From Candidatus Vogelbacteria bacterium RIFOXYD1_FULL_51_18 (GTDB lineage: Bacteria > Patescibacteriota > Minisyncoccia > Phycocordibacterales > UBA9988), in NCBI GenBank assembly GCA_001823095.1, contig MHTL01000012.1:1035-65034 (forward strand): DNA of 64,000 nucleotides. Reading direction: 5' to 3'. Shown in pieces: positions 7,667 through 55,000 of this stretch. Each line of letters starts with the position of its first letter. The first letter of the stretch is position 1. Both the position numbers and the translations under genes were made by a program. The notes under the pieces were generated by a model. The model was not told where the DNA came from, did not search any database, and saw only the letters and a program-made list of their open reading frames with translations.

Positions 7667-10579
7667 TCAAGATTTTTTTATCACCTTTGCCAATCTGCAG
7701 TACTCGCAGTCGGGGTCGGAGCAGGTTTGGTCCCAGAACGAGAGCGAGGCGATGGCGCGGAGCACTTCCTGCATCGTGCGCGTGAGCAAACTCACATCCT
7801 CGGGCGTAACGCTAAAGCGCTCCGTGCGGTAGCGACCCTTCTCATCCGGCTCTACAAAAGCAATCTCCCCTTCCCGCATTTTAAATGTCCCCTGCTCATC
7901 CAAGAGAAGCTTGTAAAACACCAGCTGGCGCCAGTAATTGCCGTCAGCGCGCTTTGTTTTACCTACTATTTCATTCCGTGATTTGTGCGCGCCGGTTTTG
8001 TAGTCGCTTACAAGTACGCCGTCACTTACAAACGTTATGCGGTCAAGTATGCCGTTTAAGCGCACAACATGACTCTCGCCTTCAAGCGGGAAGGGTACTC
8101 CGTGTATCGCGTACTCGATGCGGATATCCTTGGGCAGTCCCGCCCGATGCTGTGCAATGTAACCGGAGAGAGAACGCTTGCCCTTCCCCAAGGCCTCCTC
8201 TCGCTCCAGCGGTGAGAGCGGCGCCCGCGCAATGTTTTCTTCAAAAATGCGGATAATGCGCGCGGCGCTCACTCGCTCCCCTCTTGAGCCGCGATCATAG
8301 AGCTCCTTGAGCGCTGCGTGCATCGCAGAGCCGTAGATGAGATGTTTGCTCTTTGCCTCGGGGATGCGCAAGAGATTAACAAAGAAGTATTTCCATGGGC
8401 ATGCGAGATAGTTATTGAGGTGCGTGACCGAGAAGCCGCGCTCAAAAAAGAGCGCCTTCAAGTACTCGGCGTCCGGGACAGGGCGCGGCGCCGCGATCTG
8501 GTACGAGACAGAGGTAAGCGCCTGTGGAACTTTCTTCTCTGGTATGCTGGCAAGTTTGACAAGGCGTGAGTCAATTTCAGAAATAAACTGCGAGGGGAGC
8601 AGGGTTCCCCCGTTATCGTCAGAGACACTGTAGCTCACCGTTACTCGGCGCCGAGAGCGCGTGAGCGCGACATAGAAGAGCCGTCGCTCGTCATCCACTC
8701 CGATCTCCTCGCGTAAGGCACTGCCGCGCATGGGCAGGTCAAAGCGCTCACGTACCCGGCGCCCTCCAAAATGCCCATGGAAGGCCCGCACAATAAACAC
8801 GTAGTCAAACTCAAGCCCTTTGGAGCCGTGTGCGGTCATGAGTCGTACTCCCCCTCTTCCCTCTGCACGCTCCGGGATAGAGAGTCCGTGCGTCTCTAAA
8901 GCACTCAAGTAATCAAGAAAATCCGCAAGTTTGTGATCGGGATGCCGCGCGCTATAGCGCTTGACTTCAGCGAAAAAATCTCCAAGTTTTTGAATGGTTC
9001 CCGTAGGATCATCTCCGGCAATTACCTCCTCGCGGTAGCCGCTCTCGTTTACCAGAAAGTCTATTGACGCAGGCAGCATTCTCGTGAGTGACACGGCATT
9101 GAGATGCGAGAGCCTCCGCGAGAAGGCGCACGCCGGGGGCTCGGTGGCGCGCGCAAGCACGAGGTATAGCGACATATGTGTCTCTGCGGCGCGCGCGAGG
9201 AGCATGTAGCGCAGATGCGCAGGTATTCCGGTAAGCGGGAGGCATAGGAGCTCGGCAAGCTTTCTGTCATCGTCCATATGGACGGCTCCGCGCATGAGGA
9301 TGAGAAGCTCGGCAAGCGCAGGAGTTTTCAGTACATCAGTCTCCGAGCCAATAACGCTGGGAATCCCCCGTGCGGCAAGCGCTGCGGCAAAGGGCGGCAT
9401 ATCGCTGTTCTCACGGTAGAGCATCGCAATATCTCCCGGGTTCGTGCCTTTTCCAATAAGTTTTTCTACCTCTGAAGCAACATAGTCCGGTTCATCGCCG
9501 CTTCTCGGGACCGGTGCAAGGATGACCGACTCCTTCTGCCTGCGCTGCTTCTGCGCCTTGAGGCGCACATGGCTCAAGCGCTCCTTGGCGGAGAGGGCAA
9601 GCGAGTGCGCGGCGTCAAGAATGTTTTGTGTGGAGCGATAGTTCTCTGAAAGTTCAATGATTTTTGCGTTGGGGAAACGCGCGGTGAAGTAGAGAAAGTT
9701 GTGAAGCGAAGCTCCCTGGAACTGGTAGATTGCCTGCTTCTCATCGCCGACGATAAAGAGGTTGGGTTCATCGTGGAAGCTCCCGAGAAGCTCCAGTATT
9801 GTATTCTGCGCCTGGTTCGCATCTTGGTGCTCGTCCGCCAAGATGTACTGGTACTCCTCCTCCAAAGTGAGGAGGAGCTCGCGTTCAGCCACGAGCACGC
9901 GCACCAGCTCCATAATCATGTCTCCATAATCATAGAGTCGCTCGCGCTTAAGCGCCTCTTCATAGGCGCGGTAGACCAGCGCGAGCTCTCGGTTGCGCTC
10001 ATATTTTTTCGGATTCGCCGCGCGGTCTACTGTGCGCAGGAGTGCGGCAAAGGCGGAGGGAGACATATTCTCGCGCTTGAGCGTCTCTATCGCCTTGACG
10101 ACGGAGCTTACGTAGTACAAGGGATTGCCAAATGGTTTGATGGCCTTCAGGCGCCGCGCGAGCACCGCGCGCTCCACCAGGCGCAGTGAATCAATGCGGT
10201 CCGCCGTGTGCGAGCCAATAATGCGCGGAAAGTATTCGGGGAAGCGCTGGATAACAGCGTTGGCAAATCCGTGGAAGGTGTAAATGTTTACGCGGTAGGC
10301 GGCGCTCCCGATGATCTCTGCAAGCCGCGCGCGCATTGCCGCAACTCCTGAGTTGGTAAAGGTAAGCGCGAGTATTCCTTCCGGCCCCACGTCAGTGCGT
10401 TTTAAAATATTGGCAATTCGCAGAGTAAGCACCTGCGTTTTGCCTGTTCCCGGGCCGGCAATGACGATGACTGGCCCCTCAATAGCGTCCACCGCTTCGC
10501 GCTGGCGCGGATTGAGCGCCCGATAGAGAGTCTCAAATGTGCTTTTCTCTGAACGCATAGCGGTGTAGAATGGCTCCAT
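7667..10579 (-). CDS. UvrD/PcrA-family helicase fused to C-terminal PD-(D/E)xK (RecB/Cas4-like) nuclease domain with Cys cluster
   Basis: N-terminus reads LNPRQREAVDAIEGPVIVIAGPGTGKTQVL (UvrD Walker A). C-terminus reads ...DYKTG...CSDPDCEYC, the Cas4/AddB-type nuclease with Cys ligands. Start taken at MEPFY (10579), divergent from yqeY. Confidence 0.8.
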   Translation of the reverse strand: MEPFYTAMRSEKSTFETLYRALNPRQREAVDAIEGPVIVIAGPGTGKTQVLTLRIANILKRTDVGPEGILALTFTNSGVAAMRARLAEIIGSAAYRVNIYTFHGFANAVIQRFPEYFPRIIGSHTADRIDSLRLVERAVLARRLKAIKPFGNPLYYVSSVVKAIETLKRENMSPSAFAALLRTVDRAANPKKYERNRELALVYRAYEEALKRERLYDYGDMIMELVRVLVAERELLLTLEEEYQYILADEHQDANQAQNTILELLGSFHDEPNLFIVGDEKQAIYQFQGASLHNFLYFTARFPNAKIIELSENYRSTQNILDAAHSLALSAKERLSHVRLKAQKQRRQKESVILAPVPRSGDEPDYVASEVEKLIGKGTNPGDIAMLYRENSDMPPFAAALAARGIPSVIGSETDVLKTPALAELLILMRGAVHMDDDRKLAELLCLPLTGIPAHLRYMLLARAAETHMSLYLVLARATEPPACAFSRRLSHLNAVSLTRMLPASIDFLVNESGYREEVIAGDDPTGTIQKLGDFFAEVKRYSARHPDHKLADFLDYLSALETHGLSIPERAEGRGGVRLMTAHGSKGLEFDYVFIVRAFHGHFGGRRVRERFDLPMRGSALREEIGVDDERRLFYVALTRSRRRVTVSYSVSDDNGGTLLPSQFISEIDSRLVKLASIPEKKVPQALTSVSYQIAAPRPVPDAEYLKALFFERGFSVTHLNNYLACPWKYFFVNLLRIPEAKSKHLIYGSAMHAALKELYDRGSRGERVSAARIIRIFEENIARAPLSPLEREEALGKGKRSLSGYIAQHRAGLPKDIRIEYAIHGVPFPLEGESHVVRLNGILDRITFVSDGVLVSDYKTGAHKSRNEIVGKTKRADGNYWRQLVFYKLLLDEQGTFKMREGEIAFVEPDEKGRYRTERFSVTPEDVSLLTRTMQEVLRAIASLSFWDQTCSDPDCEYCRLAKVIKKS

Positions 10580-11030
10580 GATACAGGAACGCATTAAAAA
10601 TGAAACGAAGTCGGCTCTGCGGGAGAAGAACCAACCGAAGTTGAATGCCCTGCGCTCGCTCCTCGCGGCTTTTATCAATGAGCTCGTCGCCGAGAAAAAA
10701 ACGCCGGACTCCCCCGTCTCCGACGAACTAGCGCTGCGTGTTATTAAGCGCGCGATCAAAACTCGCAAGGATTCAATCGCGCAGTTTGTAGCCGGTGGAC
10801 GGCAGGACCTTGTGGAGAGTGAGGAGGCGGAGCTTGCCTATATAGAGAGCTTTGCGCCGGCCGGCGTTCCAGCGGAAGAGATAAAAAAAGCAGTCGAGGC
10901 AAAAAAGACGGAGCTTGGTATTAGCGACAAAGGCAAGGCGGGTATCCTTGTCGGTGCAGTCATGAAGGAACTCCGCGGCCGCGCAGATGGCAATGACGTG
11001 AAGCGTATCGTTGACTCGCTTTTTAACTGA
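10578..11030 (+). CDS. yqeY: GatB/YqeY domain protein
   Basis: 150 aa with full-length similarity to the YqeY family (LRSLLAAFINE...GKAGILVGAVMKEL). Confidence 0.8.
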   Translation: MIQERIKNETKSALREKNQPKLNALRSLLAAFINELVAEKKTPDSPVSDELALRVIKRAIKTRKDSIAQFVAGGRQDLVESEEAELAYIESFAPAGVPAEEIKKAVEAKKTELGISDKGKAGILVGAVMKELRGRADGNDVKRIVDSLFN

Positions 11031-11050
11031 CTGGAGTCAGACTTCAGTCA
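11028..11050. repeat. 23-bp perfect palindrome (REP/RPE-like family), copy 1; supplies the yqeY stop codon
   Basis: Sequence is TGACTGGAGTCAGACTTCAGTCA. The same element occurs 7 more times in the window. Confidence 0.7.
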
Positions 11051-16881: not shown

Positions 16882-16952
16882 TGCCGGGTCGTCTAATGGT
16901 AGGACACATGCCTCTGGAGCATGGTATTGGGGTTCGAGTCCCTGCCCGGCAG
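16882..16952 (+). tRNA. tRNA-Gln (anticodon CTG)
   Basis: Cloverleaf: acceptor TGCCGGG/CCCGGCA (U1-A72, G73), 3-bp D stem, anticodon stem CATGC/GCATG with loop CTCTGGA, T-loop TTCGAGT. Confidence 0.7.
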
Positions 16953-22581: not shown

Positions 22582-22654
22582 TGCCGTTGTAGCTCAGTTG
22601 GTAGAGCACGCGCATGGTAAGCGCGAGGCCGGCAGTTCAATCCTGCCCAACGGC
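22582..22654 (+). tRNA. tRNA-Thr (anticodon GGT)
   Basis: GCCGTTGTAGCTCAGTTGGTAGAGC... with anticodon loop ATGGTAA, T-loop TTCAATC, and acceptor pairing GCCGTTG/CAACGGC. Confidence 0.8.
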
Positions 22655-22680
22655 TTACTCTAGCCTCCAGTATCTAGAGT

Positions 22681-22753
22681 GCCACCTTAGCTCAGTTGGT
22701 AGAGCGGCGCATTCGTAACGCGCAGGTCCCCAGTTCAATCCTGGGAGGTGGCT
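22681..22753 (+). tRNA. tRNA-Thr (anticodon CGT)
   Basis: GCCACCTTAGCTCAGTTGGTAGAGC... with anticodon loop TTCGTAA and acceptor GCCACCT/AGGTGGC. Confidence 0.8.
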
Positions 22754-22765
22754 CAAGTCTAAGCA

Positions 22766-23890
22766 TCAGCGCACTGAGCGGTAGCCCCCGGGCACTCCAC
22801 CCTTGGAGAGGACAACCTGCCAGAGCTGGTTGTGGCGAGCTCGGAAGCTGCCTGCACAGGAGAGGAGGTAGTAGCTCCACATGCGGTAGAAGCGCTCGCC
22901 ATACTTCTCTTTAAGTTCTGGCCATGCGGATTTAAAATTGTGATACCAGACCATGAGTGTCTTATCGTAATCGGGTCCAAAGTTATGCCAATCCTCCATC
23001 ACGAAGAGCCCTTCAAGAGCGCCCCCAATCTGCGCGACCGAGGGGATTTCTCCCCCGGGGAAGATGTAGCGGTCAATCCAGGGGTCAGTGTTGTACTGCG
23101 TGATAGTAGCGCCAATTGTGTGAAGGAGGAAGAGTCCTCCCTGCGAGAGCATGCGCGACACAGCATCAAAAAATGTCCGATAATTTTTTTGCCCCACATG
23201 CTCAAACATACCGATTGAAGCAATCGCATCAAAGCGCTCCCCTGCCTCTGCGAGCCCGCGGTAATCAGCGAGGCGCACCTCAACCGGATATCCGGCAAGC
23301 CTTGTGTGCGCGAGCTCTGCCTGCGCCTTTGAAACGGTAATGCCAAGCCCCGCCGTACCGTAGCGTTCCGCCGCAAACTTAAGCAAACTCCCCCACCCAC
23401 AGCCAATATCTAAAAGACGCTGGCCTTTTTCTAGTTTGAGCTTGCGGCAGATGAGGTCTAATTTTTGCTCTTGCGCCTCGGCAAGGTTCTGGGCTTTCTC
23501 CCAATACGCGCAGGAGTAGACCATACGAGGGTCCAGCATGCGCTCAAAGAGATCATTGCCGAGGTCATAATGCGCGCGACCGATACTGAAAGCGCGCTGG
23601 AAGGACTGACGGTTCCTAAGGATCGACTTGAGTGCAAGGAGAATGAGCGATGGGCTCCAGGGGAGCTTCTCGTCAAGTTTTGCCGCGAGTACCTTAACGA
23701 AGAATTCATCCAAATGCTCGCAGTCCCACCAACCGTCCATGTAGGCCTCACCGAGTGCGAGAGAGCCTCCGCCGAGCGCCCGTGCAAAGAAGCGCTCATT
23801 GTAAACCGTAACATCCTGCGAACGAGAGCCTCCTATGGCCACATCCGCCTGTGCGAGCAGAGATTCAATTGTCGCTCGGGCTGACATCAT
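22766..23890 (-). CDS. cfa: Cyclopropane-fatty-acyl-phospholipid synthase family SAM-dependent methyltransferase
   Basis: SAM motif LDIGCGWGSL and full-length CFA-synthase-like similarity. Confidence 0.8.
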   Translation of the reverse strand: MMSARATIESLLAQADVAIGGSRSQDVTVYNERFFARALGGGSLALGEAYMDGWWDCEHLDEFFVKVLAAKLDEKLPWSPSLILLALKSILRNRQSFQRAFSIGRAHYDLGNDLFERMLDPRMVYSCAYWEKAQNLAEAQEQKLDLICRKLKLEKGQRLLDIGCGWGSLLKFAAERYGTAGLGITVSKAQAELAHTRLAGYPVEVRLADYRGLAEAGERFDAIASIGMFEHVGQKNYRTFFDAVSRMLSQGGLFLLHTIGATITQYNTDPWIDRYIFPGGEIPSVAQIGGALEGLFVMEDWHNFGPDYDKTLMVWYHNFKSAWPELKEKYGERFYRMWSYYLLSCAGSFRARHNQLWQVVLSKGGVPGGYRSVR

Positions 23891-23907
23891 TTTGCTCTGG
23901 TTCTGGG

Positions 23908-23980
23908 CGCGGCCGAAGGGAGTTGAACCCTCAATCTATCGCGTGACAGGCGATTGTGTTAACCGCTACACCACGGCCGC
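23908..23980 (-). tRNA. tRNA-Asp (anticodon GTC)
   Basis: Reverse complement reads GCGGCCGTGGTGTAGCGGTTAACAC... with anticodon loop CTGTCAC, T-loop TTCAACT and acceptor GCGGCCG/CGGCCGC. Confidence 0.8.
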
Positions 23981-24291
23981 AACGGCATTATCCTAACAAA
24001 AATGAACTGAAAGATACAGGATGCAAGTGCAGTATTCTTGAATTAGTCCGAACGCATTTTTCCGGAAAATTCCCCCCGCGAATCCGCCAGCTGGCGGACG
24101 GAAAGGCGGCGGAGTCGCACCGCTGACAATTTCAAGTTTTTCTTTGGCGGCATTCAATCCAAAAATTTATGGAGTGAATACTTAAAGAATAAAGAATTTT
24201 TATGAAAATTTCAATGTTTTCAAATATAGAAAAAGTACGAGCCCCAAGCAGAATTGAATTCCACGAGGGGCTCGGATTGTTGCGACAACGA

Positions 24292-24762
24292 CTAGAAATC
24301 GTCGCAAAAAAAGATGACCGCTACCGCTGGCCAGATCCAGATTCCGATTCCTGCGAGAAACAGGAACCAGTACTGAACCCAAAGGTATCCCCCAGAGGGA
24401 CCCTCCAGTTCGCGGATGGTTCCACGAATGTCATCCAGCGCAACCTGGTAGGTCGTCTCGGTACGCGGAATATCCTTGACGGCCTCGAGTCGCGTGATGA
24501 TCGAGGAGATGGAACCATTCAACTTCGCCAGGTCATTCGCGGGAGTTTTGAAGATCAGGGCGGTGTGACCACGAGTCATGCCATGACGCTCCATCCCCGA
24601 CTTCAACTCCTTCATGTACTCCAACATGTCCGGCACGTCCGCAGCGACCTGTGCGCGATGGGCGACGGACTCCACGTCTCGGTTCAGTTGGTAGCCCTGA
24701 TTGATCAGGAAAATACCAACCAAAACCGACACGACCAACGAAACTATCAACGAGGTTTTCAT
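24292..24762 (-). CDS. Hypothetical exported protein with C-terminal TM anchor
   Basis: 156 aa with a strong RBS (AAAGGAGA). The overlapping plus-strand ORF 24202..25059 is judged spurious. Confidence 0.35.
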   Translation of the reverse strand: MKTSLIVSLVVSVLVGIFLINQGYQLNRDVESVAHRAQVAADVPDMLEYMKELKSGMERHGMTRGHTALIFKTPANDLAKLNGSISSIITRLEAVKDIPRTETTYQVALDDIRGTIRELEGPSGGYLWVQYWFLFLAGIGIWIWPAVAVIFFCDDF

Positions 24763-25047
24763 GCGGTTCTCCTTTCAAGGTACTGGTTGACTGAATCAAG
24801 CCACCATGACTTGATTTCATGCTATCCTACCATAACAGGAGTTCTGTGTCAAGGGCAACAAAAAAACACCATCTCTGGTGCTTCTCGTTTCTTAACTCTT
24901 TGGATTAAAAAATTTTCTTCCCCCAAAATGCGAAACCGCCAATTCGTTTTTACCCCCAAAATTGAATACGAATTAGTCGCCGAGTCCGCCGAAAAGGCGG
25001 ATAAACTCCGCGAGGCGAACCCTTCAAACTTGCAATTTCCTACGTGG

Positions 25048-25121
25048 TGCCGGGGGTGAGAATCGAACTCACGACCTTGGGTTTATGAGTCCCACGCTCT
25101 AACCAACTGAGCTACCCCGGC
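25048..25121 (-). tRNA. tRNA-Met/Ile2 (anticodon CAT), elongator type (G1-C72 paired)
   Basis: Reverse complement reads GCCGGGGTAGCTCAGTTGGTTAGAGC... with anticodon loop CTCATAA and T-loop TTCGATT. Confidence 0.7.
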
Positions 25122-25293
25122 AGCATATTATTTGATACTCTATTCTAAATTCTAACGCAAAAATCTCATTATCATCGACCCACTCCGCCAGCCGGCGGAT
25201 ACCCCGGCATACATATGACGTACAAATCATATAGTGCCACGGAACACTGAAAAAGGCCAACCTACCGACTGGAGAATTGGCCTTTTTCAGCTA

Positions 25294-25369
<76 letters not shown>

Positions 25370-31705: not shown

Positions 31706-32295
31706 ACTGCTAAGATTTTTTGTCTGCCACCTTGTGCTGTGAAAGTAATTTTAACATATTCTTCATCTGGTGGATTATCAGATTGATCACCCGATCTAAT
31801 CATCGCTTCTATATGAGGACTCTGAAATGTAATATTTACTTGCGCTAGGTATGTGTCTGTACCTGAATGGCAACTCTCACCTGATATTATTTTTTTTCGG
31901 CAGATTTTTGTTATCCTCACCCTTGATGGAAGATCTTTAGTAGGTTCAATATTTTCTAAACCGCCAGTATACACACCGTCTTGAGAATCAGGGTTATTTG
32001 CGATATCTCTAAAAAGAGTGTAGTTATTTGCCAGTTTACTAATATTTATTCCCACCACAGGAACCGAAGTCATGGTAATAATATCATTTTCAGTGATTCC
32101 CTGACTGCGGCCGGAAATTCCAGAGACTTGCATTTCTTTGAGCCCGGCAAGGACTTGTTGGGCGGTCAATTCTAGCTCTTTTTGTGAGCGGAAATCAGGG
32201 AGGCTTGAGACAACTATACTGGTGATGATAATAATAATCACTGTCACTACCAACATTTCAATCAATGTAAACCCTTTTTGCTTAGTAGAGTGCAT
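31675..32295 (-). CDS. Type IV minor pilin / pseudopilin
   Basis: N-terminal motif KGFTLIEMLVVTVIIIIITSIV. Confidence 0.6.
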   Translation of the reverse strand: MHSTKQKGFTLIEMLVVTVIIIIITSIVVSSLPDFRSQKELELTAQQVLAGLKEMQVSGISGRSQGITENDIITMTSVPVVGINISKLANNYTLFRDIANNPDSQDGVYTGGLENIEPTKDLPSRVRITKICRKKIISGESCHSGTDTYLAQVNITFQSPHIEAMIRSGDQSDNPPDEEYVKITFTAQGGRQKILAVWSSGRMELQ

Positions 32296-33064
32296 TGGAG
32301 AATGAGAAGAATGAGAGTACCGCCGCCATGTCTATGTGGCCAAAGGCCGCCAAGGCGGCTCCGAGGATGAGAAATGGCGCAAAGGGTACCTCGGTCTTTA
32401 TTGTAGCATAGCGTCCGCGGAAAAGGAGGAGGGCAACGCCAAAGGCCGCCCCAATCCAAAAGGCCAAGAGGAGCGCGGCAAAGCCCTGGCTGGGGCCCAA
32501 GAGGAGCCCGAGACCGAGCGCAAGCTTAGCGTCCCCCAATCCCATCCATTTGCCGGCCGAGAAGTGCCACAGCGCCGCAAAAAAGAGCGCCATAGAAAGC
32601 GCCACCCCCACCCTCCATCCAATTGACTGAAGTCTGACTTCAGTCAACAGCACGGAAAGGGCGCTCAATCCGATAAGTATATACACCATCCCGTCGGGGA
32701 TGATTTTGTGGCGGATATCGTAGGCAGTGATGGCCATGAGGATGCTCCATACGGCAAGGTGGTAAAGGGCGCTCCATAATGGCCACGATTGCCAAGCAAT
32801 AAGCGCAAAGAGGGCTCCTATCCCCAGTTCTACCAGTGGATACTGTGTGGATATCCTGCTCCCGCAGCCGCGGCACCTGCCTCCCTGCAGAAGGTAGCTC
32901 AACACCGGTATGAGCTCGTACCAAGCAAGCTTTTTGCCGCAGGAAAAACACCCCGAGCGCCCCGCCAAGGACCTCCCCGTGTTGTAGCGGAGCACCAGCA
33001 CATTAAGGAAGCTCCCTACGACAGTGCCAAAAATAAAAAAAATCACAAGCGATAAGTTTTCCAC
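32282..33064 (-). CDS. pilD: Prepilin peptidase (A24 family) with N-terminal Zn-binding Cys tetrad; contains an in-frame palindrome insertion
   Basis: Has CGSCGKKLAWYELIPVLSYLL...CRGCGSRI and the aspartyl protease TM core. The residues LLTEVRLQSIGW are encoded by the 23-bp palindrome at 32624-32646. Confidence 0.85.
   Translation of the reverse strand: MENLSLVIFFIFGTVVGSFLNVLVLRYNTGRSLAGRSGCFSCGKKLAWYELIPVLSYLLQGGRCRGCGSRISTQYPLVELGIGALFALIAWQSWPLWSALYHLAVWSILMAITAYDIRHKIIPDGMVYILIGLSALSVLLTEVRLQSIGWRVGVALSMALFFAALWHFSAGKWMGLGDAKLALGLGLLLGPSQGFAALLLAFWIGAAFGVALLLFRGRYATIKTEVPFAPFLILGAALAAFGHIDMAAVLSFFSFSNALY
32624..32646. repeat. 23-bp palindrome copy 2 (inside pilD coding sequence, in-frame)
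   Basis: Sequence is TGACTGAAGTCTGACTTCAGTCA. Confidence 0.75.
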
Positions 33065-33094
33065 AGTACCATTGTACTCCTCTCCTGCTATAAT

Positions 33095-33117
33095 TGACTG
33101 AAGTCAGACTTCAGTCA
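33095..33117. repeat. 23-bp palindrome copy 3 (5' end of RAYT gene)
   Basis: Sequence is TGACTGAAGTCAGACTTCAGTCA. Confidence 0.75.
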
Positions 33118-33277
33118 ATTTCAATGGACACCATCTACCACATCTACAATAGAGGTGTTGAGAAGAGGACAATCTTTCTTGATGACCGAGATAGAATCAG
33201 ATTTATTAATTCCTTAGCTATCTTTAACTCGAGCGATCTCGACCCAAACGTAAGCCGCACAATGCGGAATACTCTAA

Positions 33278-33300
33278 TGACTGGAGTCAGACTTCAGTCA
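33278..33300. repeat. 23-bp palindrome copy 4 (inside RAYT ORF)
   Basis: TGACTGGAGTCAGACTTCAGTCA, encoding MTGVRLQS. Confidence 0.75.
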
Positions 33301-33554
33301 GATGACCAGCTTGTGGAGATTATGGCGTTTTGTCTGATGCCGAATCACTTTCACCTCATGATGCGGGCACGAACAGAACGGGGTATCTCAAAATTTATGC
33401 AAAAACTGGGAACCGGGTATGCTAATTATTTCAATCTCCGCCGCCAGCGTGTAGGGTCCTTATTCCAAAATAAATATAAATCCGTCCCTATCATGGATGA
33501 CGCTCATTTTTTGTGGCTCCCCCACTACATACACTGCAATCCGGCTAAGAAGAA

Positions 33555-33577
33555 TGACTGGAGTCCGACTTCAGTCA
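33555..33577. repeat. 23-bp palindrome copy 5 (inside RAYT ORF)
   Basis: TGACTGGAGTCCGACTTCAGTCA, encoding DWSPTSVK. Confidence 0.75.
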
Positions 33578-33768
33578 AAGGGTACCGATGGTCAAGTTAT
33601 GGAGAATATGCAGAGGATGCCGGGAATAAGAGATATCCGGAAATTATAGATACCACCTTCCTCTCCGAAATTTTTGAGACGCCAGAAAATTTTAGGAAAC
33701 AAACTCAAGAATGGCTAAAATCCTATTCGGAATCGGAAGCAGACGGCACCAACGCGCTCATCATAGAT

Positions 33769-33791
33769 TGACTGGAGTCCGACTTCAGTCA
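33769..33791. repeat. 23-bp palindrome copy 6 (RAYT stop region)
   Basis: Sequence is TGACTGGAGTCCGACTTCAGTCA. Confidence 0.75.
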
Positions 33792-34339
33792 ATGTTGATT
33801 ACGGTTGCACTTACCAGTTTAAGATACTGAAGGTAATCACCGATGTTGTTTTTTATATCATCCACCATTCTCTTCATATCTACGTTGCCGTATTTGTGAA
33901 CGATCAAATTTCTCAACCCAACAGAGGGAGCGATTTCGAGCGCAAATTCCATAGGTAAAATTTTATTCTCGCCCAAGACAATGAAAGTGCTCTGATAATC
34001 GGCGGGAACAGCTAGATGAGATTGGCTGATAATGTGAGTGTTCAAATCAATTGCCGAATCAACGATTAATTGGAACAATCTTTCAACGGTGTGAAGGACT
34101 AAAGATTCGTCAATAATTTCGCGGCTCTCTTTTTTCAACAACGGCAACAATTCATCTAGATAATTTCTGATGTCATTGATTTTATTGGTAGTAAGAGTTT
34201 GATCAAGCATGACGCTTAATAAATGATTGAATGGAAGCGCCTTGCAGCTTATAGAGCGGCCGGGCTTCCATATATAATTTAATACTATACACTTTAAAAC
34301 GGTTGAACAGGTCGACTTCTTGTTCATAGAGCAATACAC
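33785..34339 (-). CDS. hepT: HepT-like HEPN toxin (DUF86)
   Basis: C-terminal Rx4HxY motif (RNLIVHKYGNVD). It overlaps the upstream MntA gene. Confidence 0.55.
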   Translation of the reverse strand: MYCSMNKKSTCSTVLKCIVLNYIWKPGRSISCKALPFNHLLSVMLDQTLTTNKINDIRNYLDELLPLLKKESREIIDESLVLHTVERLFQLIVDSAIDLNTHIISQSHLAVPADYQSTFIVLGENKILPMEFALEIAPSVGLRNLIVHKYGNVDMKRMVDDIKNNIGDYLQYLKLVSATVINID

Positions 34340-34610
34340 CTTCCTCCGCTACCTTCTTCAAGAGGAGTGGTGGAGCATTTTTAAGGTCAACCAGTTCAAT
34401 ATTGCCGTAACCGGTTTTAGTCATCAACTCCTCCTGGAGTTCTGCGATCTCCCGCAGACCAAGCCGGCGTTCAGCAATAAAACCAATATCAATATCGCTC
34501 TGCGCATGGGTCTTGCCCGTTGCCTGGGAGCCAAAGAGTACGCCAAGAACTAAACCACGTTCAGAAGCTAATTCAGCAAACTCCTGGCTTAAAAGCGGCA
34601 CGGATATCAT
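34203..34610 (-). CDS. mntA: MntA-like minimal nucleotidyltransferase antitoxin
   Basis: NTase motif LFGSQATGKTHAQSDIDIGF (GSx9-13DxD). Confidence 0.7.
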   Translation of the reverse strand: MISVPLLSQEFAELASERGLVLGVLFGSQATGKTHAQSDIDIGFIAERRLGLREIAELQEELMTKTGYGNIELVDLKNAPPLLLKKVAEEGVLLYEQEVDLFNRFKVYSIKLYMEARPLYKLQGASIQSFIKRHA

Positions 34611-34654
34611 TTTTTAATCATATCACAAAACACCCTTAAACCCAACCAAACCCG

Positions 34655-34677
34655 ATGACTGGAGTCTGACTCCAGTC
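34655..34677. repeat. 23-bp palindrome copy 7 with 40-bp shared upstream arm
   Basis: Sequence is TGACTGGAGTCTGACTCCAGTCA. The preceding ACACCC(T)TAAACC(T)CAACCAAACCCGA is duplicated at 35560-35589. Confidence 0.7.
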
Positions 34678-34679
34678 AG

Positions 34680-35135
34680 CTATTCAACAGATAAGCCAAA
34701 CCGGCCAGGATCCTTAACCACTGATTTGAACGTCTGGACAAAGAAATCCAGATCGGGCACGTGAGCACGGATTACATCGTACATTTCTTGAGCAGTCACT
34801 TCCCAATACAGGTGCACCAGCCGGTTGCGGTAACCCGCTAATTTTTTATTACGTTCGGCGAAGTCAACGGTGATGATGCCATGCTCGCCCAGCAACATAA
34901 TTATCTCCTGATAATCTCGAGCTTTGCCGTTTAACCGGGAGGCGATATGAGTCCCAATGGTCAAAATCCCCTCAAGGGTACGGCGCAGGTAGTGCTCGGC
35001 TAACGCATACGTTTTTTTATCGGCAATAAATTGCTCTCGGCTCATGTCTGTCACTGCACGCAACTCTGCAATCCCCGCTTCAATATCAGCGATCAAATCA
35101 ACGACTTTGGCCTTGTTTAGCGGCTGTGTGCCCAT
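34680..35135 (-). CDS. hepT: HepT-like HEPN toxin (DUF86), second copy
   Basis: Motif RNRLVHLYWEVTAQEMYD (Rx4HxY). Confidence 0.6.
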   Translation of the reverse strand: MGTQPLNKAKVVDLIADIEAGIAELRAVTDMSREQFIADKKTYALAEHYLRRTLEGILTIGTHIASRLNGKARDYQEIIMLLGEHGIITVDFAERNKKLAGYRNRLVHLYWEVTAQEMYDVIRAHVPDLDFFVQTFKSVVKDPGRFGLSVE

Positions 35136-35141
35136 ATACAG

Positions 35142-35540
35142 TTAGGATGATTGCCCAAGAACGGAAGCATGGAAAATATTTTCGTAATGCTTGAAGTCAA
35201 AGTAACGTAACATCACTTCAGCGCGATACTCTGCAAACCCTCCCGTCACCGCCTCATACAGCGGCCAGCCTTGAGTCACTGCGCGGAAGCGTAGCCCCGG
35301 GGCAGTTTCATCAAGGTAGACCAGATCAATCTTCTGGTCTGGAAAATGTTTTTGCATTTCAGCTAACAGTTCGCCGTAGACACCTACCGGATCCTGCCTC
35401 TGTAGACTAAGGTCGGCAAAAACCACGCCGATATCAAGATCGCTTAAGGGATGGGCGGAATCAGTTGCGGCTGACCCAAACAAGATCACCAGCCTCACTC
35501 TCAGCCTCTTGAGCGTTGAGGTATGCAATTGGATTGCCAT
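35142..35540 (-). CDS. mntA: MntA-like nucleotidyltransferase antitoxin, second copy
   Basis: Motif ILFGSAATDSAHPLSDLDIGVVF. Confidence 0.7.
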   Translation of the reverse strand: MAIQLHTSTLKRLRVRLVILFGSAATDSAHPLSDLDIGVVFADLSLQRQDPVGVYGELLAEMQKHFPDQKIDLVYLDETAPGLRFRAVTQGWPLYEAVTGGFAEYRAEVMLRYFDFKHYENIFHASVLGQSS

Positions 35541-35589
35541 ACTCCCGCATCATACCACAAAAACACCCTCAAACCTCAACCAAACCCGA

Positions 35590-35612
35590 TGACTGGAGTC
35601 AGACTTCAGTCA
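35590..35612. repeat. 23-bp palindrome copy 8
   Basis: Sequence is TGACTGGAGTCAGACTTCAGTCA. Confidence 0.75.
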
Positions 35613-35703
35613 ATGTTCCACTCCTCTATCGTATCACAACCCCCCGCCATGTGGCGGGGGGTTGATCACAATCGTCAAAATAAGATCCTGCTGAAAGGCT
35701 TTA

Positions 35704-36207
35704 CTAAGCGTTATCGCAGACTACATCCGTACTACTGACACCTGTCACAATTTCTGTGGCCGCTGCAGCAGTACTCACACCAGCATAGCCAGTACTATCA
35801 ACACAGTAAGTAGTACCATCGTTGAGGACAACTGCTGCTCCCCATTTTGTTGGTGCAACGCCAACAGCGGTATCTTGACCACACTGAACAACGTTCGCCG
35901 CAGGTACTTGTGTTTGAACAGCTGTCTTTAAGGTCAACAAGCTACCAGAGACGGACGCTGCTGCAGCACACAAATTTACAGCATACGTACCAGAATCAGT
36001 AACACCAAGCTCTGCTTGTGCCCTCATAGATGACATCGAGGCTTTAGCTGACGCGTCCTTTCCCTTGTTTCTTGCTGAGCCTAAACTCGTCAAAACAATT
36101 CCTGAAAGAATACCGATGATGGCGATGACGACGAGGAGTTCAATGAGGGTGAAGCCCTTCGATCCGCCACAGCGGACCCTGGATAAACCTTTCTTATAAT
36201 TCTTCAT
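35704..36207 (-). CDS. pilA: Type IV major pilin
   Basis: N-terminus reads GGSKGFTLIELLVVIAIIGILSGIVLTSL, the class III signal / N-methyl-Phe motif. 167 aa. Confidence 0.8.
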   Translation of the reverse strand: MKNYKKGLSRVRCGGSKGFTLIELLVVIAIIGILSGIVLTSLGSARNKGKDASAKASMSSMRAQAELGVTDSGTYAVNLCAAAASVSGSLLTLKTAVQTQVPAANVVQCGQDTAVGVAPTKWGAAVVLNDGTTYCVDSTGYAGVSTAAAATEIVTGVSSTDVVCDNA

Positions 36208-36324
36208 ACATTCTTTTTATATTCTAATAATTAAAGCTTTGATACGGAAATCATCCGACCGTTGGCTACCCTAGATTATATGCTTGCTTTCTATGGCCTA
36301 CAAATGCTTATGTGGATAAACGAC

Positions 36325-51830: not shown

Positions 51831-51983
51831 GAATTAAAGTCAGGTCATTTTTAGAAATTTTTTCTTTGGCGTTCGCCAAAGAAAGCCAATGGTTTTGGGC
51901 AATTCCGAACGCTCCGCGTTTTTTTAAGGTGAGGTTCAAAAATTCAAAAGCCGAAGATTTTTGGAGGGAGATTTTTTTGGAGG
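51826..51983 (-). repeat. Inverted duplicate of the recombinase gene 3' end (attP-arm-like)
   Basis: Reverse complement matches 63409-63557 except for a ~10-bp indel. It joins the 194-bp repeat at the same CTGGTG where the recombinase gene meets tmRNA. Confidence 0.7.
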
Positions 51984-52098: not shown

Positions 52099-55000
52099 CT
52101 AAACTATACTTTCCCTCAATATGTATCCGACAACAGAACCTTTTGCTATTAAGAAATCTAGTATCACTAACACATCTTGTTTTAACTTTTTGGTCTCTCT
52201 TATTTTTGTACGATTTTTATAAATATACTTTCTGATAAGATTTTCTATATAGAAAAGCGTGTTTACCTCAAGTTTGGCAGTAAATAAGTTTTTATTTTTT
52301 ACTAACATACCTGATATCCACTGTACGCCATCCTCCATATAGGTACTCCCGATATCATTTAGTAGTTTTGAAATTGCATAGAGGGTTGAGGCACATTGTC
52401 CAATATTCTCCGAAATTTCTTTAAAAAATCTTTTATCACTATCTTTGAATGTATGCCATTCGGTCGCAGATTCTTTCCACGGATTTTGAGCAAAAAGATA
52501 ACTTTTAATAATTTTATCAACGTACCAATATCCATCTCCCTTTTTACAAAGCTCAATTATTTTCTCGTTAAATATTCTCCAAACTTCCCAAAATATCTCA
52601 TAAGAGTTTAAATAATCCTCAGCAGATATAAATTCCTCAAATAAATCAGCGATTGCCTCTGAACTATTAAATTTATCAAGAAATGGTTGAAGGTATTCTT
52701 GAATTTCTTCTTTTGAAGAACTCAAGACGAGATAGGCTAGTTTTTCTAAAAAACCATGCTTTGTCGCATAATCAACTCTGTCCTCTCTGTCATTTGAAAT
52801 TAATTTTTCAGCAAAAGCAAAGATGGTTTTTTTGACTACTATTTTATGCTCCTCATTTTTAGTTTTTAGAGGAATCAATTGGAAAGCTGTTTTTAATGTG
52901 TATAAATCTATCTGCTCAATATCTCCAACGTCACCAATTAACAATTGATTGTTTTGGATTTTCTCTAAATACACTTTATTTTCTTCCAAGAATCTTTTCA
53001 TTGCATCACTATCTTGTATATCGTACTGATTCTTTATATATTTTTCTTGGCGTATTTTTTCTCTTAACTCATCAAATTTTGGTTTCAAATATAAGTAGCC
53101 AAACAATAATGACTGAGCATCATCAAAATTGGTACTCCATAGCTTGTGAATAGCCGTGATTGAAAATACGTTAAAACTTGTACCAGCCATATCAATGGGA
53201 TAATAGTTAAACAAATTAAACAACAAAATTTCTTTTATCTTTCCTTTTTCTTTCGGAAATTTCTCAAATAGAACTGGCAATACCGAAATTGCCGATTGCG
53301 CACCATCAGTTACCTGATATTGATAGTTAGGGCCGGAAGACGAAGACACGGCTTCTAAAACAATATCGGCGCAAAATTCGCCTTCCTCTTTTGAAAGCTT
53401 ATCAAGAAAATCTCTAATCATGACAGAGCAGACTTCTGAGGGGATAGAATGATTTAAAAGGTAAAAACTTTCTTCTTCCGAGTGCTGAAGTTTTAATGAT
53501 TCAGGTTTTTTAACAGTTTTTAATTTTGCAATGATCTCTTCAACTTCCTTAAGCGGAAGCTTGGGATCGTCCTCATATTTATTATACTGCTTGTATTTTT
53601 CGTCATTTCTGAGCCTGAAATTTGCCCATAATTTTAATTGCAGGTATTTAGATGATTCGGAATTCTTTTCTAAAGATTTCTCGCTGTATTCTTTTAATTT
53701 CGGATCAATTTGAGGATTAAAATTAATCAAATATCCGTCATCAGTTTTTTCTGAGACAAGATTCATTTTCCTTCTATCCATTCTTGCCAAGTAAAGTCTC
53801 CACGTTTTGTCTGATTCGGTTTCTACCGATGGATCGGGTAACTTTTTGTAATAATCGTCCAATATTTCCCACAGAATCTTTTGTCTGTTCTTTGATTCCT
53901 CCTCATCAACTTCTTCACTTCTAAATAATTGGTAATTTAGAAATACATTCTCTAAAGACCATTTTCTATGCTTGTCATCACAGGTTTTTAACCTCTCCTC
54001 TTCGTGAATTTCATTTTTTGAATTGATACCAAAACTTGCTCTTAAAGACAGAAGTGAACTTTTTTGACCTTGGTCTAAAACTAACCTGCTAGTGTCATAA
54101 AGAAAAAAGTCTTTTGTTCTAAAAAGAATTTTAGCCACATTAAAAGTCTTTTCGGGATAAGCCGACACAACACTTGCAACCACGCCTGAGATAGAAGCTG
54201 ATTTTGAATTTCTAATTAGATACAAAAGCCAGCTTTCCAAAGTCTTTGAATCAGTAACCTTTCCAATTTCAAGGAAATACCTTTCTAAGGCCATGTGCAT
54301 TGATTCTAGGACGTGAGGAGCAACCTGCGTACCTCTGAACGCGCACCAAAGCCGACAGCTTATGTATTGTTTTATTGGCTTATCTTTTTCAATAAAGACC
54401 TCAACTTCTTCAACTTCATATTTAGCAAATTCAGATTTGGCAAAGTATTCTACTGCTTTATTTGTAAATTTTAATATGAAATCTATTGTTTCTTGGAGCG
54501 AAGATTGGAGCAGCCAATAAATTGGAGTCTGATATGAGCTAGCCGGAAAATAATCTAAATGATCATCTTCCATGTCAAAATGTTCCGCAATGTCTATCCC
54601 AGAACGACCGGAGAAGTGATCTTCTTTTGGCGTGAACGACCAAAATAAATCTGCTAATTCCAAAACATATTTAGGAAAAGTCTTGGCAATAGTGACCCCT
54701 TCAAATTTTGTCAAAATAATTTCAGATAAATCAACATAAGGGTCTCTGTGTCTTTTCCACTTATTCTTTACAATTTCTTTAAAAATTCCCTCTAGTTGGC
54801 CTTTAATCTCTAGGGAGCTATAAAGAATTGTCTGCAAGAGCTTATCTTTAGTACCATCGTCAGAAATATGGACGTCTTCTTTAATAGTCCATTGGTAGTA
54901 TTTCAGTGCCATTAAGCCAGAATATTTTGTCGTTTCTCCTTCCTTAAATTTACTAGTCCAATCGTGGATTATCGGCAAGATAAAATGGATATTTCTAATA

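Follow-up and report, generated by a model that had tools for sequence, protein, structure and literature searches.

A probable REP/RAYT-type hairpin and enzyme system in a Patescibacteria bacterium, with palindromes at fixed places inside the enzyme gene

Here we analyze a stretch of 64,000 nucleotides (nt) from Candidatus Vogelbacteria bacterium RIFOXYD1_FULL_51_18 (assembly GCA_001823095.1, contig MHTL01000012.1, positions 1,035 to 65,034), referred to below as the window, in which a perfect 23-nt palindrome recurs around and within a gene whose product resembles the tyrosine transposases associated with repetitive extragenic palindromes (REPs), the REP-associated tyrosine transposases (RAYTs). 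We conclude that palindrome and gene probably constitute a hairpin and enzyme system of the REP/RAYT type in this Patescibacteria (Parcubacteria/Paceibacteria-like) bacterium. Such a system would have two components: a single, vertically inherited RAYT-like gene located in a type IV pilus gene cluster, and the cognate 23-nt hairpin as its substrate. The hairpin would bracket the enzyme gene, with one copy before the ATG start codon and one on or after the stop codon, and would also occupy two fixed in-frame places inside the gene that correspond to poorly ordered surface loops of the protein. These four positions are likely to be ancestral to a large clade, each lineage of which would have its own palindrome at all of them, with the copies evolving in concert.

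Firstly, the palindrome is a genuine repeat. The window contains exactly eight perfect copies of TGACTGRAGTCNGACTYCAGTCA, which start at positions 11028, 32624, 33095, 33278, 33555, 33769, 34656 and 35590, in agreement with the original prediction of at least eight, against an expected count of zero and zero matches in 100 dinucleotide-preserving shuffles; permitting three mismatches revealed no additional sites in the window. Seven of the eight copies are clustered within 3 kb (32.6-35.6 kb). The unit is a 23-nt perfect palindrome with a single central base, a TGA at its 5' end and a TCA at its 3' end; apart from that central base, the copies vary at just one of the paired positions (7/17). 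Folded as single-stranded DNA (ssDNA), the copies form hairpins of 10-11 bp with values of -6.5 to -10.2 kcal/mol (z -3.3 to -5.3). The TGA and TCA ends close one reading frame on both strands, and an A at position 7 creates a second TGA within the palindrome arm. The other two frames are open and encode the small polar peptides xTEVRLQS and DWSxTSV. On the plus strand of the window the variable paired position is G-C, G.T or A-T and never A.C, and the window's asymmetric (G.T) copies, five in number, all lie on one strand regardless of gene direction. This is the C-rich strand, for which we have no explanation. The same one-strand bias is present in two other contigs, Ga0209727_1000123 and Ga0209210_1000137 (3/3 and 2/2 copies, which are small numbers). 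The strand consistency of the G.T copies fits a DNA-level, strand-specific process.

Secondly, the gene at the centre of the cluster (33124..33771, plus strand) encodes a 215-residue protein of the Y1/HUH type, identified by its Pfam Y1_Tnp match (38.7 bits, with a cutoff of 23), by its motifs and by its predicted structure. It contains the HUH motif N74-HFH77 and the class-2 catalytic tyrosine motif Y135-IHCNP140 (Y-x3-NP), followed by Y154-RWSS158; the HUH histidines and Y135 are invariant across the homologue alignment, and the HuH-Y distance of about 60 residues is an ordinary one. As a search of the PDB by sequence with the family profile returned nothing at E<=0.01, the fold, of the ferredoxin type seen in IS200-like transposases, was established through an AlphaFold2 (AF2) model (predicted local distance difference test (pLDDT) score of 77) and Foldseek, whose best matches were the TnpA proteins of IS608/ISDra2 (2a6o, 2xo6) and 4er8, at probability 1.00, with a TMq of 0.49 against 4er8_A, the RAYT of E. 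coli.

There is one RAYT-like gene in the window. It sits between the prepilin peptidase gene pilD and a pilin gene, both here and in four of the homologous loci that we compared (L023, L050, L051 and L054), and beside a pilin gene in two others (L047/L049), suggesting that it is a long-term resident of the locus; in distant homologues the gene lies away from pilus genes. Homologues of both the RAYT-like protein and PilD come from metagenome bins of Patescibacteria/Parcubacteria, mostly from groundwater, and the RAYT-like family comprises 1,733 clusters at E<=1e-30. A search of the viral contigs of IMG/VR retrieved just one distant RAYT relative, which served as outgroup, and the palindrome itself is absent from them.

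Four of the eight copies are associated with the RAYT-like gene in the window. The upstream copy (33095..33117), which extends to 29 nt (AATTGACTG...CAGTCAATT), directly follows a TATAAT-like hexamer and ends 6 nt before the ATG. Two copies lie within the open reading frame (ORF), one in each of the open frames of the palindrome. The first (site 1; 33278..33300) reads M52-TGVRLQS59 and falls, ahead of the HUH motif, in the loop that joins helix aA to strand b2; the second (site 2; 33555..33577) reads D145-WSPTSV151 and lies in the loop directly after the helix that carries the catalytic tyrosine. In the AF2 model confidence is low at both sites (pLDDT <50 for residues 45-57 and 56 for the block 141-150). 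The fourth copy (33769..33791) provides the TGA stop codon of the RAYT-like gene with one arm (33769-71, plus strand) and, with the other, that of a convergent HEPN gene (33787-85, minus strand), the latter not having been part of the original prediction. That prediction also held that further palindrome copies form the start and stop regions of the RAYT ORF. The stop is as claimed. The conserved start is the ATG at 33124, and because the homologues begin with MDTIYH, the TTG 'start' inside the copy at 33095 is probably an artefact of ORF calling. We also considered whether inverting or deleting the segment between sites 1 and 2 would generate an alternative ORF, and rejected this because stop codons or a frameshift result.

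The open frames of the palindrome mislead gene callers, and this has a practical side for annotation. Apart from the TTG 'start' at 33094, within the copy at 33095, one PilD homologue (P0122) has been given an N-terminal extension of about 50 residues that starts with MTGVRLQS, another gene-calling error produced by the palindrome.

The evidence that carries our conclusion comes from the comparison of the window with the DNA of 12 further genes (43-79% identity), drawn from the 120 best matches (at least 43% identity). In all 13 genes, perfect palindromes specific to the lineage flank the ORF and occupy site 1 and/or site 2, with exceptions for the upstream flank in L001 and L053. Of the 11 homologue genes that are complete, 10 have a palindrome about 6-20 nt before the ATG, which is degenerate in L049, and in L053 none was detected; in L001 the locus is cut at its 5' end, and the upstream flank is missing. 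All 13 genes have a palindrome on or just past the stop codon. Site 1 contains a palindrome in L001, L047, L049, L050, L051, L054, L056 and L058, and a degenerate one in L023, while site 2 contains one in L001, L023, L047, L049, L051, L052, L053, L054 and L057. The palindromes themselves differ. All four positions have TGATGGAAGTGAGACTTCCATCA in L047 and L049 (the degenerate upstream copy of the latter included), TGATTGAAGTTNAACTTCAATCA in L051 and ATCGGAAGTCNGACTTCCGAT in L054. Both flanks and site 1 are occupied by TGATGGAAGTCCGACTTCCATCA in L050, by TATGGAGGTTNAACCTCCATA in L056 and by AATGAATGAAGTTGGACTTCATTCATT in L058, and both flanks and site 2 by CTATGGAAGTTNAACTTCCATAG in L057 and CTATCGACCTCNGAGGTCGATAG in L052; L053 has TATGGAAGTCGGACTTCCATA at the stop codon and site 2. 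The palindrome type of the window recurs in L023, at the flanks and both internal sites, and in L001, at both internal sites and the stop codon. The latter locus and L047 are on one contig of a single metagenome-assembled genome (MAG) (CAYNXC010000002.1), which thus contains two RAYT-like genes of the clade, one accompanied by the TGACTG-type and the other by the TGATGG-type of palindrome. Within 20-kb flanks, the palindromes of each lineage are almost restricted to the RAYT gene.

The reading frame is shared as well. In the window, L001, L023, L047 and L049, which were read codon by codon, the frame used is 'xxEVxLxS' at site 1 and 'DxSxTSx' at site 2; the site peptides of the other homologues agree with these patterns, and in the protein alignment many homologues have 'xEV[RSG]L' opposite TGVRLQS of the window and 'xS.TS' opposite DWSPTSV. 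The outgroup RAYT (L060, 27% identity) has palindromes at the flanks only, a short aA-b2 loop and a canonical post-tyrosine segment, NPVKAKLVIKAEDYEFSS; we therefore consider that the internal copies are specific to the clade of the window's RAYT. Comparison of the sequences indicates that site 1 lies in a loop specific to this clade, and site 2 is a same-length replacement of the outgroup segment 'NPVKAKLVxxxEDYxxSS'. The claim that both internal copies are read in-frame holds; the claim that each of them adds exactly 8 codons is not confirmed, as the alignments contain no clean 8-codon gaps. To cover the wider family, peptides that a palindrome of at least 11 pairs could encode were counted, a protein-only proxy of supporting use only, with a high background (17/119 by shuffling, at 11 pairs), that misses G.T copies including the window's own site 2. 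Among 119 close homologues such peptides were found in 63 at site 1 and 63 at site 2, against 17 expected at each, and among 96 representatives at no more than 50% identity in 42 against 15 at site 1 and in 23 against 12 at site 2. Internal palindromes are thus, as far as this proxy indicates, a common feature of the wider family, not a universal one.

The four copies agree with each other within a gene and differ between lineages by compensated changes (for instance, TGACTG...CAGTCA versus TGATGG...CCATCA). The internal copies are therefore an old, conserved part of the RAYT gene: inheritance applies to their positions but not to their sequences, and the coding and non-coding copies evolve in concert. 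Such concerted evolution rules out that the motif is a mere conserved stretch of protein sequence, and likewise that the copies are independent recent insertions. The original prediction, that the element invades the gene of its presumed mobilising enzyme, is not supported in the sense of a recent invasion, given the presence of palindromes at the same two sites in homologues of 43-79% identity.

The cluster includes one more intragenic copy. The pilD gene (32282..33064, minus strand), which is divergent from the RAYT gene, encodes a prepilin peptidase of 260 residues (A24_N_bact, 100.6 bits; Peptidase_A24, 49 bits), and the copy at 32624..32646 is read in-frame as L140-TEVRLQS147 with the ORF unbroken, as predicted. 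PilD retains 51 of the 51 invariant columns of a 24-sequence alignment, and since all family-invariant residues are present it is probably functional. In its AF2 model (pLDDT 89.8) the residues encoded by the palindrome comprise the last part of helix 124-141, a turn of three residues (142-144) and the first part of helix 145-168, and the catalytic residues D116 and D178 are at the opposite ends of these helices from the turn. Modelling of PilD had been proposed as a way to place the insert; together with the established topology of A24 peptidases, the model suggests that the TEVRLQS turn is on the extracytoplasmic side. The proposed alignment with orthologs did not confirm insertions of 8 residues: the PilD loop of the window is 4-5 residues longer than those of its orthologs, not 8, and site 2 of the RAYT-like protein is equal in length to the outgroup segment. 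The PilD gene of L054 (61% identical) has GTGATGGAAGTCTCACTTCCATCAC at the identical codon position and an equal loop length, and that of L055 (72% identical) only a remnant, CTCACTGGAGCGACAG, with no RAYT called beside the gene.

Two side observations concern this gene. The copy within pilD and the one that precedes the RAYT gene match each other perfectly, as an inverted pair, over 27 nt (32621-32647 and 33094-33120), flanking bases included and with the centre base inverted; the two are spaced 446 nt apart and span the 5' part of pilD and the divergent intergenic region. In addition, N-terminal pilD fragments (about residues 2-39) that are separate from the intact gene end exactly at a palindrome (L015:602-754 and L001:7350-7444). 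From their sequences, these fragments appear to be footprints of rearrangements with breakpoints at palindromes.

Beyond the RAYT locus, copies of the palindrome are sparse. Only one of the eight copies in the window lies away from the locus (one in about 60 kb). This copy (11028..11050) supplies with its first three bases the TGA stop codon of yqeY (10578..11030), as had been predicted, and is kept in strains that are 90-100% identical (L031, L038 and L043). Genomes and metagenome contigs were scanned with the exact 23-mer of the window, variant palindromes being sampled through the 12 homologue loci. Among species-representative genomes the exact 23-mer was found in 5 stretches from 3 MAGs, with 1-3 copies per MAG, and among metagenome contigs in 41 stretches, with 2-4 copies per contig of 85-95 kb. 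The copies have about 45 distinct flanks and are located at gene ends, near gene starts, between genes and in-frame within genes, about a quarter of them being intragenic. In related genomes of these ultra-small bacteria, occasional in-frame copies are tolerated in the housekeeping genes for Tgt (in two orthologs, at the same site), MetRS (where the copy is in the linker that leads to the anticodon domain) and MnmA, and in a gene for a DUF192 protein. The Tgt copy is situated in a hypervariable acidic loop, in which relatives differ: the copy may be intact, decayed (MTEVRPQL), replaced by decayed cores in tandem (LTEVRLPEGSPTSN, as the DNA of L059 confirms) or missing, which indicates turnover in a tolerant loop. 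These scans thus confirmed that in-frame copies exist elsewhere, at a low copy number. More generally, the original view of the palindrome as a real repeated hairpin that is tolerated in-frame, provides stop codons and is associated with a RAYT-like gene is upheld.

Separately, we observed palindrome families that share the core G[GA]AGT[CT]NGACT[TC]C and have other outer arms (L050:4108-4134, L050:4562-4594 and L059:16816-16838), so that these bacteria may have a whole superfamily of related hairpins.

How, then, could such a system work? By analogy with TnpA_REP of E. coli and TnpA of IS608, the enzyme would bind the hairpin when it is extruded from single-stranded DNA, and would cut and rejoin the DNA at its foot. 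Occasionally, cutting and rejoining may seed new copies, and old hairpins may be overwritten by the current version, which would produce the concerted change. Binding, cleavage, mobilisation and homogenisation of the hairpin by the enzyme are all proposed here from these better-known relatives. New copies would persist only where they are harmless, that is, at gene ends, at cassette promoters and in in-frame loops. The reading frames of the palindrome, one of which is a stop on either strand while the other two are loop-friendly, would account for the copies at the ends of yqeY, the RAYT gene and the HEPN gene, and in loops of PilD, Tgt, MetRS, MnmA and the DUF192 protein.

Several of our observations fit the proposed REP/RAYT-type system less well. 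Firstly, away from the RAYT gene there is about one dispersed copy per 20-60 kb, which is very low for a REP family. Secondly, the flanks of 45 distinct sites do not contain a conserved guide tetranucleotide (of the GTAG / CGTC type) beside the hairpin. Thirdly, the protein scores 49.1 bits against the NCBIfam equivalog REP_Tyr_transpos (NF047646), which is below the cutoff of 80, and we therefore classify it, by sequence, as RAYT-like and not as a canonical RAYT. Furthermore, genome GCA_964574105 has perfect copies in Tgt and MnmA and no RAYT at its three palindrome loci nor beside pilD, and in L054 the palindrome in PilD is unlike that of the adjacent RAYT; we have no explanation for either. 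No presence/absence polymorphism of the palindrome was seen between near-identical strains. L023 has perfect flanking copies and slightly decayed internal ones, and the internal copies may therefore be dispensable. Finally, concerted change could also be the result of ordinary gene conversion.

The remaining copies in the cluster are associated with toxin-antitoxin genes. Downstream of the RAYT gene the window has an array of three palindromes that alternate with two HEPN-MNT cassettes, the last palindrome being followed by the pilin gene. The convergent HEPN gene (33785..34339, minus strand), which obtains its TGA from the other arm of the copy at 33769, is its first gene; the copy at 34656..34678 lies between the two MNT/HEPN cassettes and is followed on the minus strand by a leader of about 45 nt and an MNT start codon; and the copy at 35590..35612, also with a leader of about 45 nt, lies between the second MNT/HEPN cassette and the pilin gene (35704..36207, minus strand). 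At 34612-34680 and 35549-35612 (both minus strand) and at L015:1196-1265 the palindrome is fused to this leader, TCGGGTTTGGTTG.GGTTTRAGGGTGTTTTTGTGGTATGAT, which stops a few bases before the MNT/HEPN start codon and, in a strain of 95% identity, precedes a different small cassette. The palindrome-fused leader looks like a shared promoter, possibly giving leaderless transcripts. Gene content between the RAYT gene and pilC (33785-36210, compared with L015, L022, L037 and L044) differs among strains that are 95-99% identical elsewhere, which have other cassettes, another C-terminus of the pilin or an extra gene for a four-helix bundle. Two other known types of site were considered for the palindromes of this locus. 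Integron attC sites were rejected in view of the lack of evidence of cassette circles, and DNA uptake sequences, which the location in a pilus cluster brings to mind, were rejected because the density is far too low (one copy in about 60 kb); DNA uptake sequences are present at about one per kb genome-wide.

Of the alternatives to a REP/RAYT-type system, the one that best withstands these data, unlikely as we consider it, is that the palindromes are operators or other regulatory sites, and that the RAYT-like protein is a domesticated DNA-binding factor that would autoregulate its gene through the upstream and internal copies, by repression or as a roadblock, with the dispersed copies regulating or insulating neighbouring genes and no transposition taking place at present. 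The upstream copy is located directly after the TATAAT-like hexamer and 6 nt before the ATG, and in most homologues it is about 10-30 nt before the ATG; two further copies are directly upstream of the conserved, promoter-like leader of the toxin-antitoxin cassettes. The occurrence of the gene once in the window, its apparently long-term synteny, the low palindrome copy number and the perfect symmetry, which would suit a dimeric binder of double-stranded DNA, also agree with such a role. On the other hand, the invariance of the HUH histidines and the catalytic tyrosine argues for catalysis, there is no obvious regulatory logic for copies in Tgt, MetRS and MnmA, and a scan of the region 32.9-35.8 kb for consensus promoters and terminators performed no better than chance.

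Slightly less likely still is a mobile element that resembles the Rickettsia palindromic elements (RPEs) and inserts at random, so that the copies in pilD and the RAYT gene would be recent, independent and tolerated inserts of 8 codons. Random insertion could explain why in-frame copies are found in several unrelated genes, why relatives differ in the palindrome versions and frames of the Tgt loop, as if a tolerant loop had been hit repeatedly, and why the cassette content adjacent to palindromes differs among strains of 95-99% identity. However, the RAYT sites are common to homologues down to 43% identity, in the same frame wherever it was read, the PilD site is also present in an ortholog of 61% identity, alignments do not show a clean 8-codon gap, and close strains do not show insertion polymorphism. 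For the copies in the RAYT gene, recent random insertion is thus largely refuted.

It is also conceivable, with still lower probability, that the pilus locus undergoes programmed rearrangement with the palindromes as its recombination sites, either by integron- or shufflon-like capture or exchange of cassettes or through an HUH-catalysed ON/OFF inversion of the RAYT core between site 1 and site 2. A palindrome is a direct and an inverted repeat simultaneously, the cassettes and palindromes form an array, in the strain of 95% identity these palindromes enclose another cassette, the pilin and its neighbours differ in 99% strains, and the pilD fragments of L015 and L001 end at palindromes. Nevertheless, none of the contigs contains an inverted or excised variant, inversion between site 1 and site 2 yields stop codons only, most homologous loci are without cassettes, and distant homologues are away from pilus genes.

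Finally, that the motif is only a conserved protein sequence or an RNA hairpin or terminator, with no element at the DNA level, is very improbable: although 'EVxL' recurs at site 1 in many homologues and several copies are at the 3' ends of genes, the peptides change between lineages exactly with the non-coding flanking palindromes, symmetry is held at synonymous positions, asymmetric G.T copies stay on one strand irrespective of how the genes are oriented (some being A.C on the sense strand), copies lie within essential genes, no T-run follows the palindrome stems, and an Rfam scan of 10.5-36.5 kb at a permissive threshold returned tRNAs only and no match to the palindrome. The co-variation of the peptides with the non-coding flanking copies also settles, in the negative, the possibility raised along with the original prediction that the motif is ancestral protein sequence.

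A system of the REP/RAYT type, which we therefore continue to favour, can be compared with the known REPtrons, in which RAYT/TnpA_REP genes are flanked by cognate REP hairpins (Nunvar 2010, PMC2817692; Ton-Hoang 2012, PMC3333891; Messing 2012, PMC3479197; Quentin 2018, PMC6006769). As in REPtrons, a Y1/HUH gene with a Y-x3-NP motif, here present once in the window, is bracketed by a hairpin that is dispersed in the genome (with copies on either side of the ORF, at 33095 and 33769, and dispersed ones at 11028, 34656 and 35590), and each gene has its own hairpin family, with co-evolution of enzyme and hairpin; as with REPs, the ends of the palindrome can supply stop codons (PMC3733652). Unlike in REPtrons, the element is a bare, perfect 23-nt palindrome without the GT[AG]G/CGTC foot (GTAG/CGTC) at its 5' side, its copy number is very low, far from the more than 100 copies per genome of canonical REPs, and it is not purely extragenic, hairpins being at fixed places within the ORF of the enzyme; moreover, the host is a CPR (Candidate Phyla Radiation) bacterium.

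In-frame palindromes had been considered unusual outside Rickettsia, which the literature does not support. Intragenic in-frame REPs, and stop codons provided by REP ends, are known from several species (Di Nocera et al. 2013, PMC3733652), and in subclass 2.4 REPs are present in-frame within the tnpA_REP genes themselves (Quentin et al. 2018, PMC6006769). Intragenic REPs, including those inside tnpA_REP genes of other subclasses, are thus already published. In common with subclass 2.4, the RAYT-like gene of the window has its cognate palindromes within it, in peripheral loops and with the frame intact. However, its protein does not fit that subclass, the sites here being before HuH (residues 52-59) and after Y (145-151), with a HuH-Y distance of about 60 residues, and here the sites are positionally conserved over a deep divergence.

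By its motifs the protein resembles instead subclass 2.1, also described as Bertels Group 1 or 'TIRYT' (PMC6006769, PMC5581495, PMC3733652), with which it shares NH[YF]H, FQ for WQ, Y[IV]H.NP, a tail with SS and a length of about 215-240 residues, as well as inverted repeats at the flanks and, probably, a low copy number; NHFH, LFQ, YIHCNP (YIHLNP in homologues) and WSS are all present, with lengths of 215-235 residues compared with about 238 in the subclass, in what is a comparison of motifs and not with the authors' hidden Markov models (HMMs). In subclass 2.1 no REP-like sequences were found near the genes (Quentin et al. 2018, PMC6006769), unlike here, where hairpins flank and lie inside 13 of the 13 sampled genes. 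The terminal inverted repeats (TIRs) of TIRYTs, GGGG[AT][CG]A[CG] (PMC6006769, PMC5581495, PMC3733652), are unrelated to our palindrome.

With the IS200/IS605 elements (IS608, ISDra2) the system shares the protein fold and subterminal hairpins on both sides, and, by analogy, would share their chemistry on single-stranded DNA. The consistent strand of the asymmetric copies also recalls the strand-specific insertion of IS200/IS605. Unlike these elements, it has Y-x3-NP and not Y-x3-Q, a syntenic gene that occurs once in the window, no tnpB and the same symmetric hairpin at both ends. With RPEs, as far as they are treated in PMC3733652, it has in common that palindromic repeats are tolerated in-frame in functional genes of a reduced genome, mainly in loops, RPE-1 being a longer palindromic insertion (Ogata et al., as cited in PMC3733652). 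Our element differs from RPEs in being only 23 nt long (7-8 codons) and in its link to a RAYT-like gene, within which copies of it are also found. RPEs are 100-150 bp long and are not known to have an associated transposase gene. In the literature that could be searched, we found no description of the present system, nor anything specific on palindromic repeats of CPR bacteria. From the intragenic REPs described so far it is set apart by the 2.1-like subclass (by motifs), the form of the element, the position of the internal sites, the conservation of position combined with co-variation in sequence over a deep divergence, and the CPR host.

Two features of the window are unrelated to the palindrome. 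Identical 24-nt hairpins, TTTCTTTGGCG(TT/AA)CGCCAAAGAAA, at 51861-51884 and 63498-63521 bracket a low-GC island (51.8-63.6 kb; 0.33-0.38, compared with about 0.55), which contains a type III restriction-modification system (Res, 56982-59675; Mod, 59677-61773), a gene for a helix-turn-helix (HTH) protein, an ORF of 1602 residues without Pfam match (52099-56907) and a large serine recombinase gene (62063-63628), and is probably an integrated defence island. Five tRNA genes are clustered on both strands at 22583-25368, and another one is located at 16882-16952.

We can only speculate on whether the hairpins embedded in the ORF are functional in themselves. In that case, which we regard as a long shot, enzyme and substrate would form a self-contained, heritable module. 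Such a module might bring its hairpin family into being again in whatever genome it enters, the gene could regulate or switch itself via its own hairpins, and hairpin-bounded exchange of cassettes at a type IV pilus locus would be an HUH-based, single-stranded DNA analogue of integrons and shufflons in CPR bacteria.

If the system is of the REP/RAYT type, as we think probable, REP/RAYT biology would be extended to the Candidate Phyla Radiation and to a Y1 subclass (by motifs) that has been reported to be without REPs. Each lineage of the clade offers a matched pair of enzyme and hairpin, with the hairpin written four times, and together these pairs may serve as a co-variation data set for the way in which Y1/HUH enzymes read their hairpins. 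The concerted change of the fixed intragenic copies would be direct evidence of the homogenisation of dispersed 23-nt repeats, which is hard to observe for REPs. Finally, the palindrome illustrates how a repeat can persist in a genome that has almost no intergenic space: one of its frames is closed by a stop codon whichever strand is read, and the remaining two encode peptides that a loop can accommodate.

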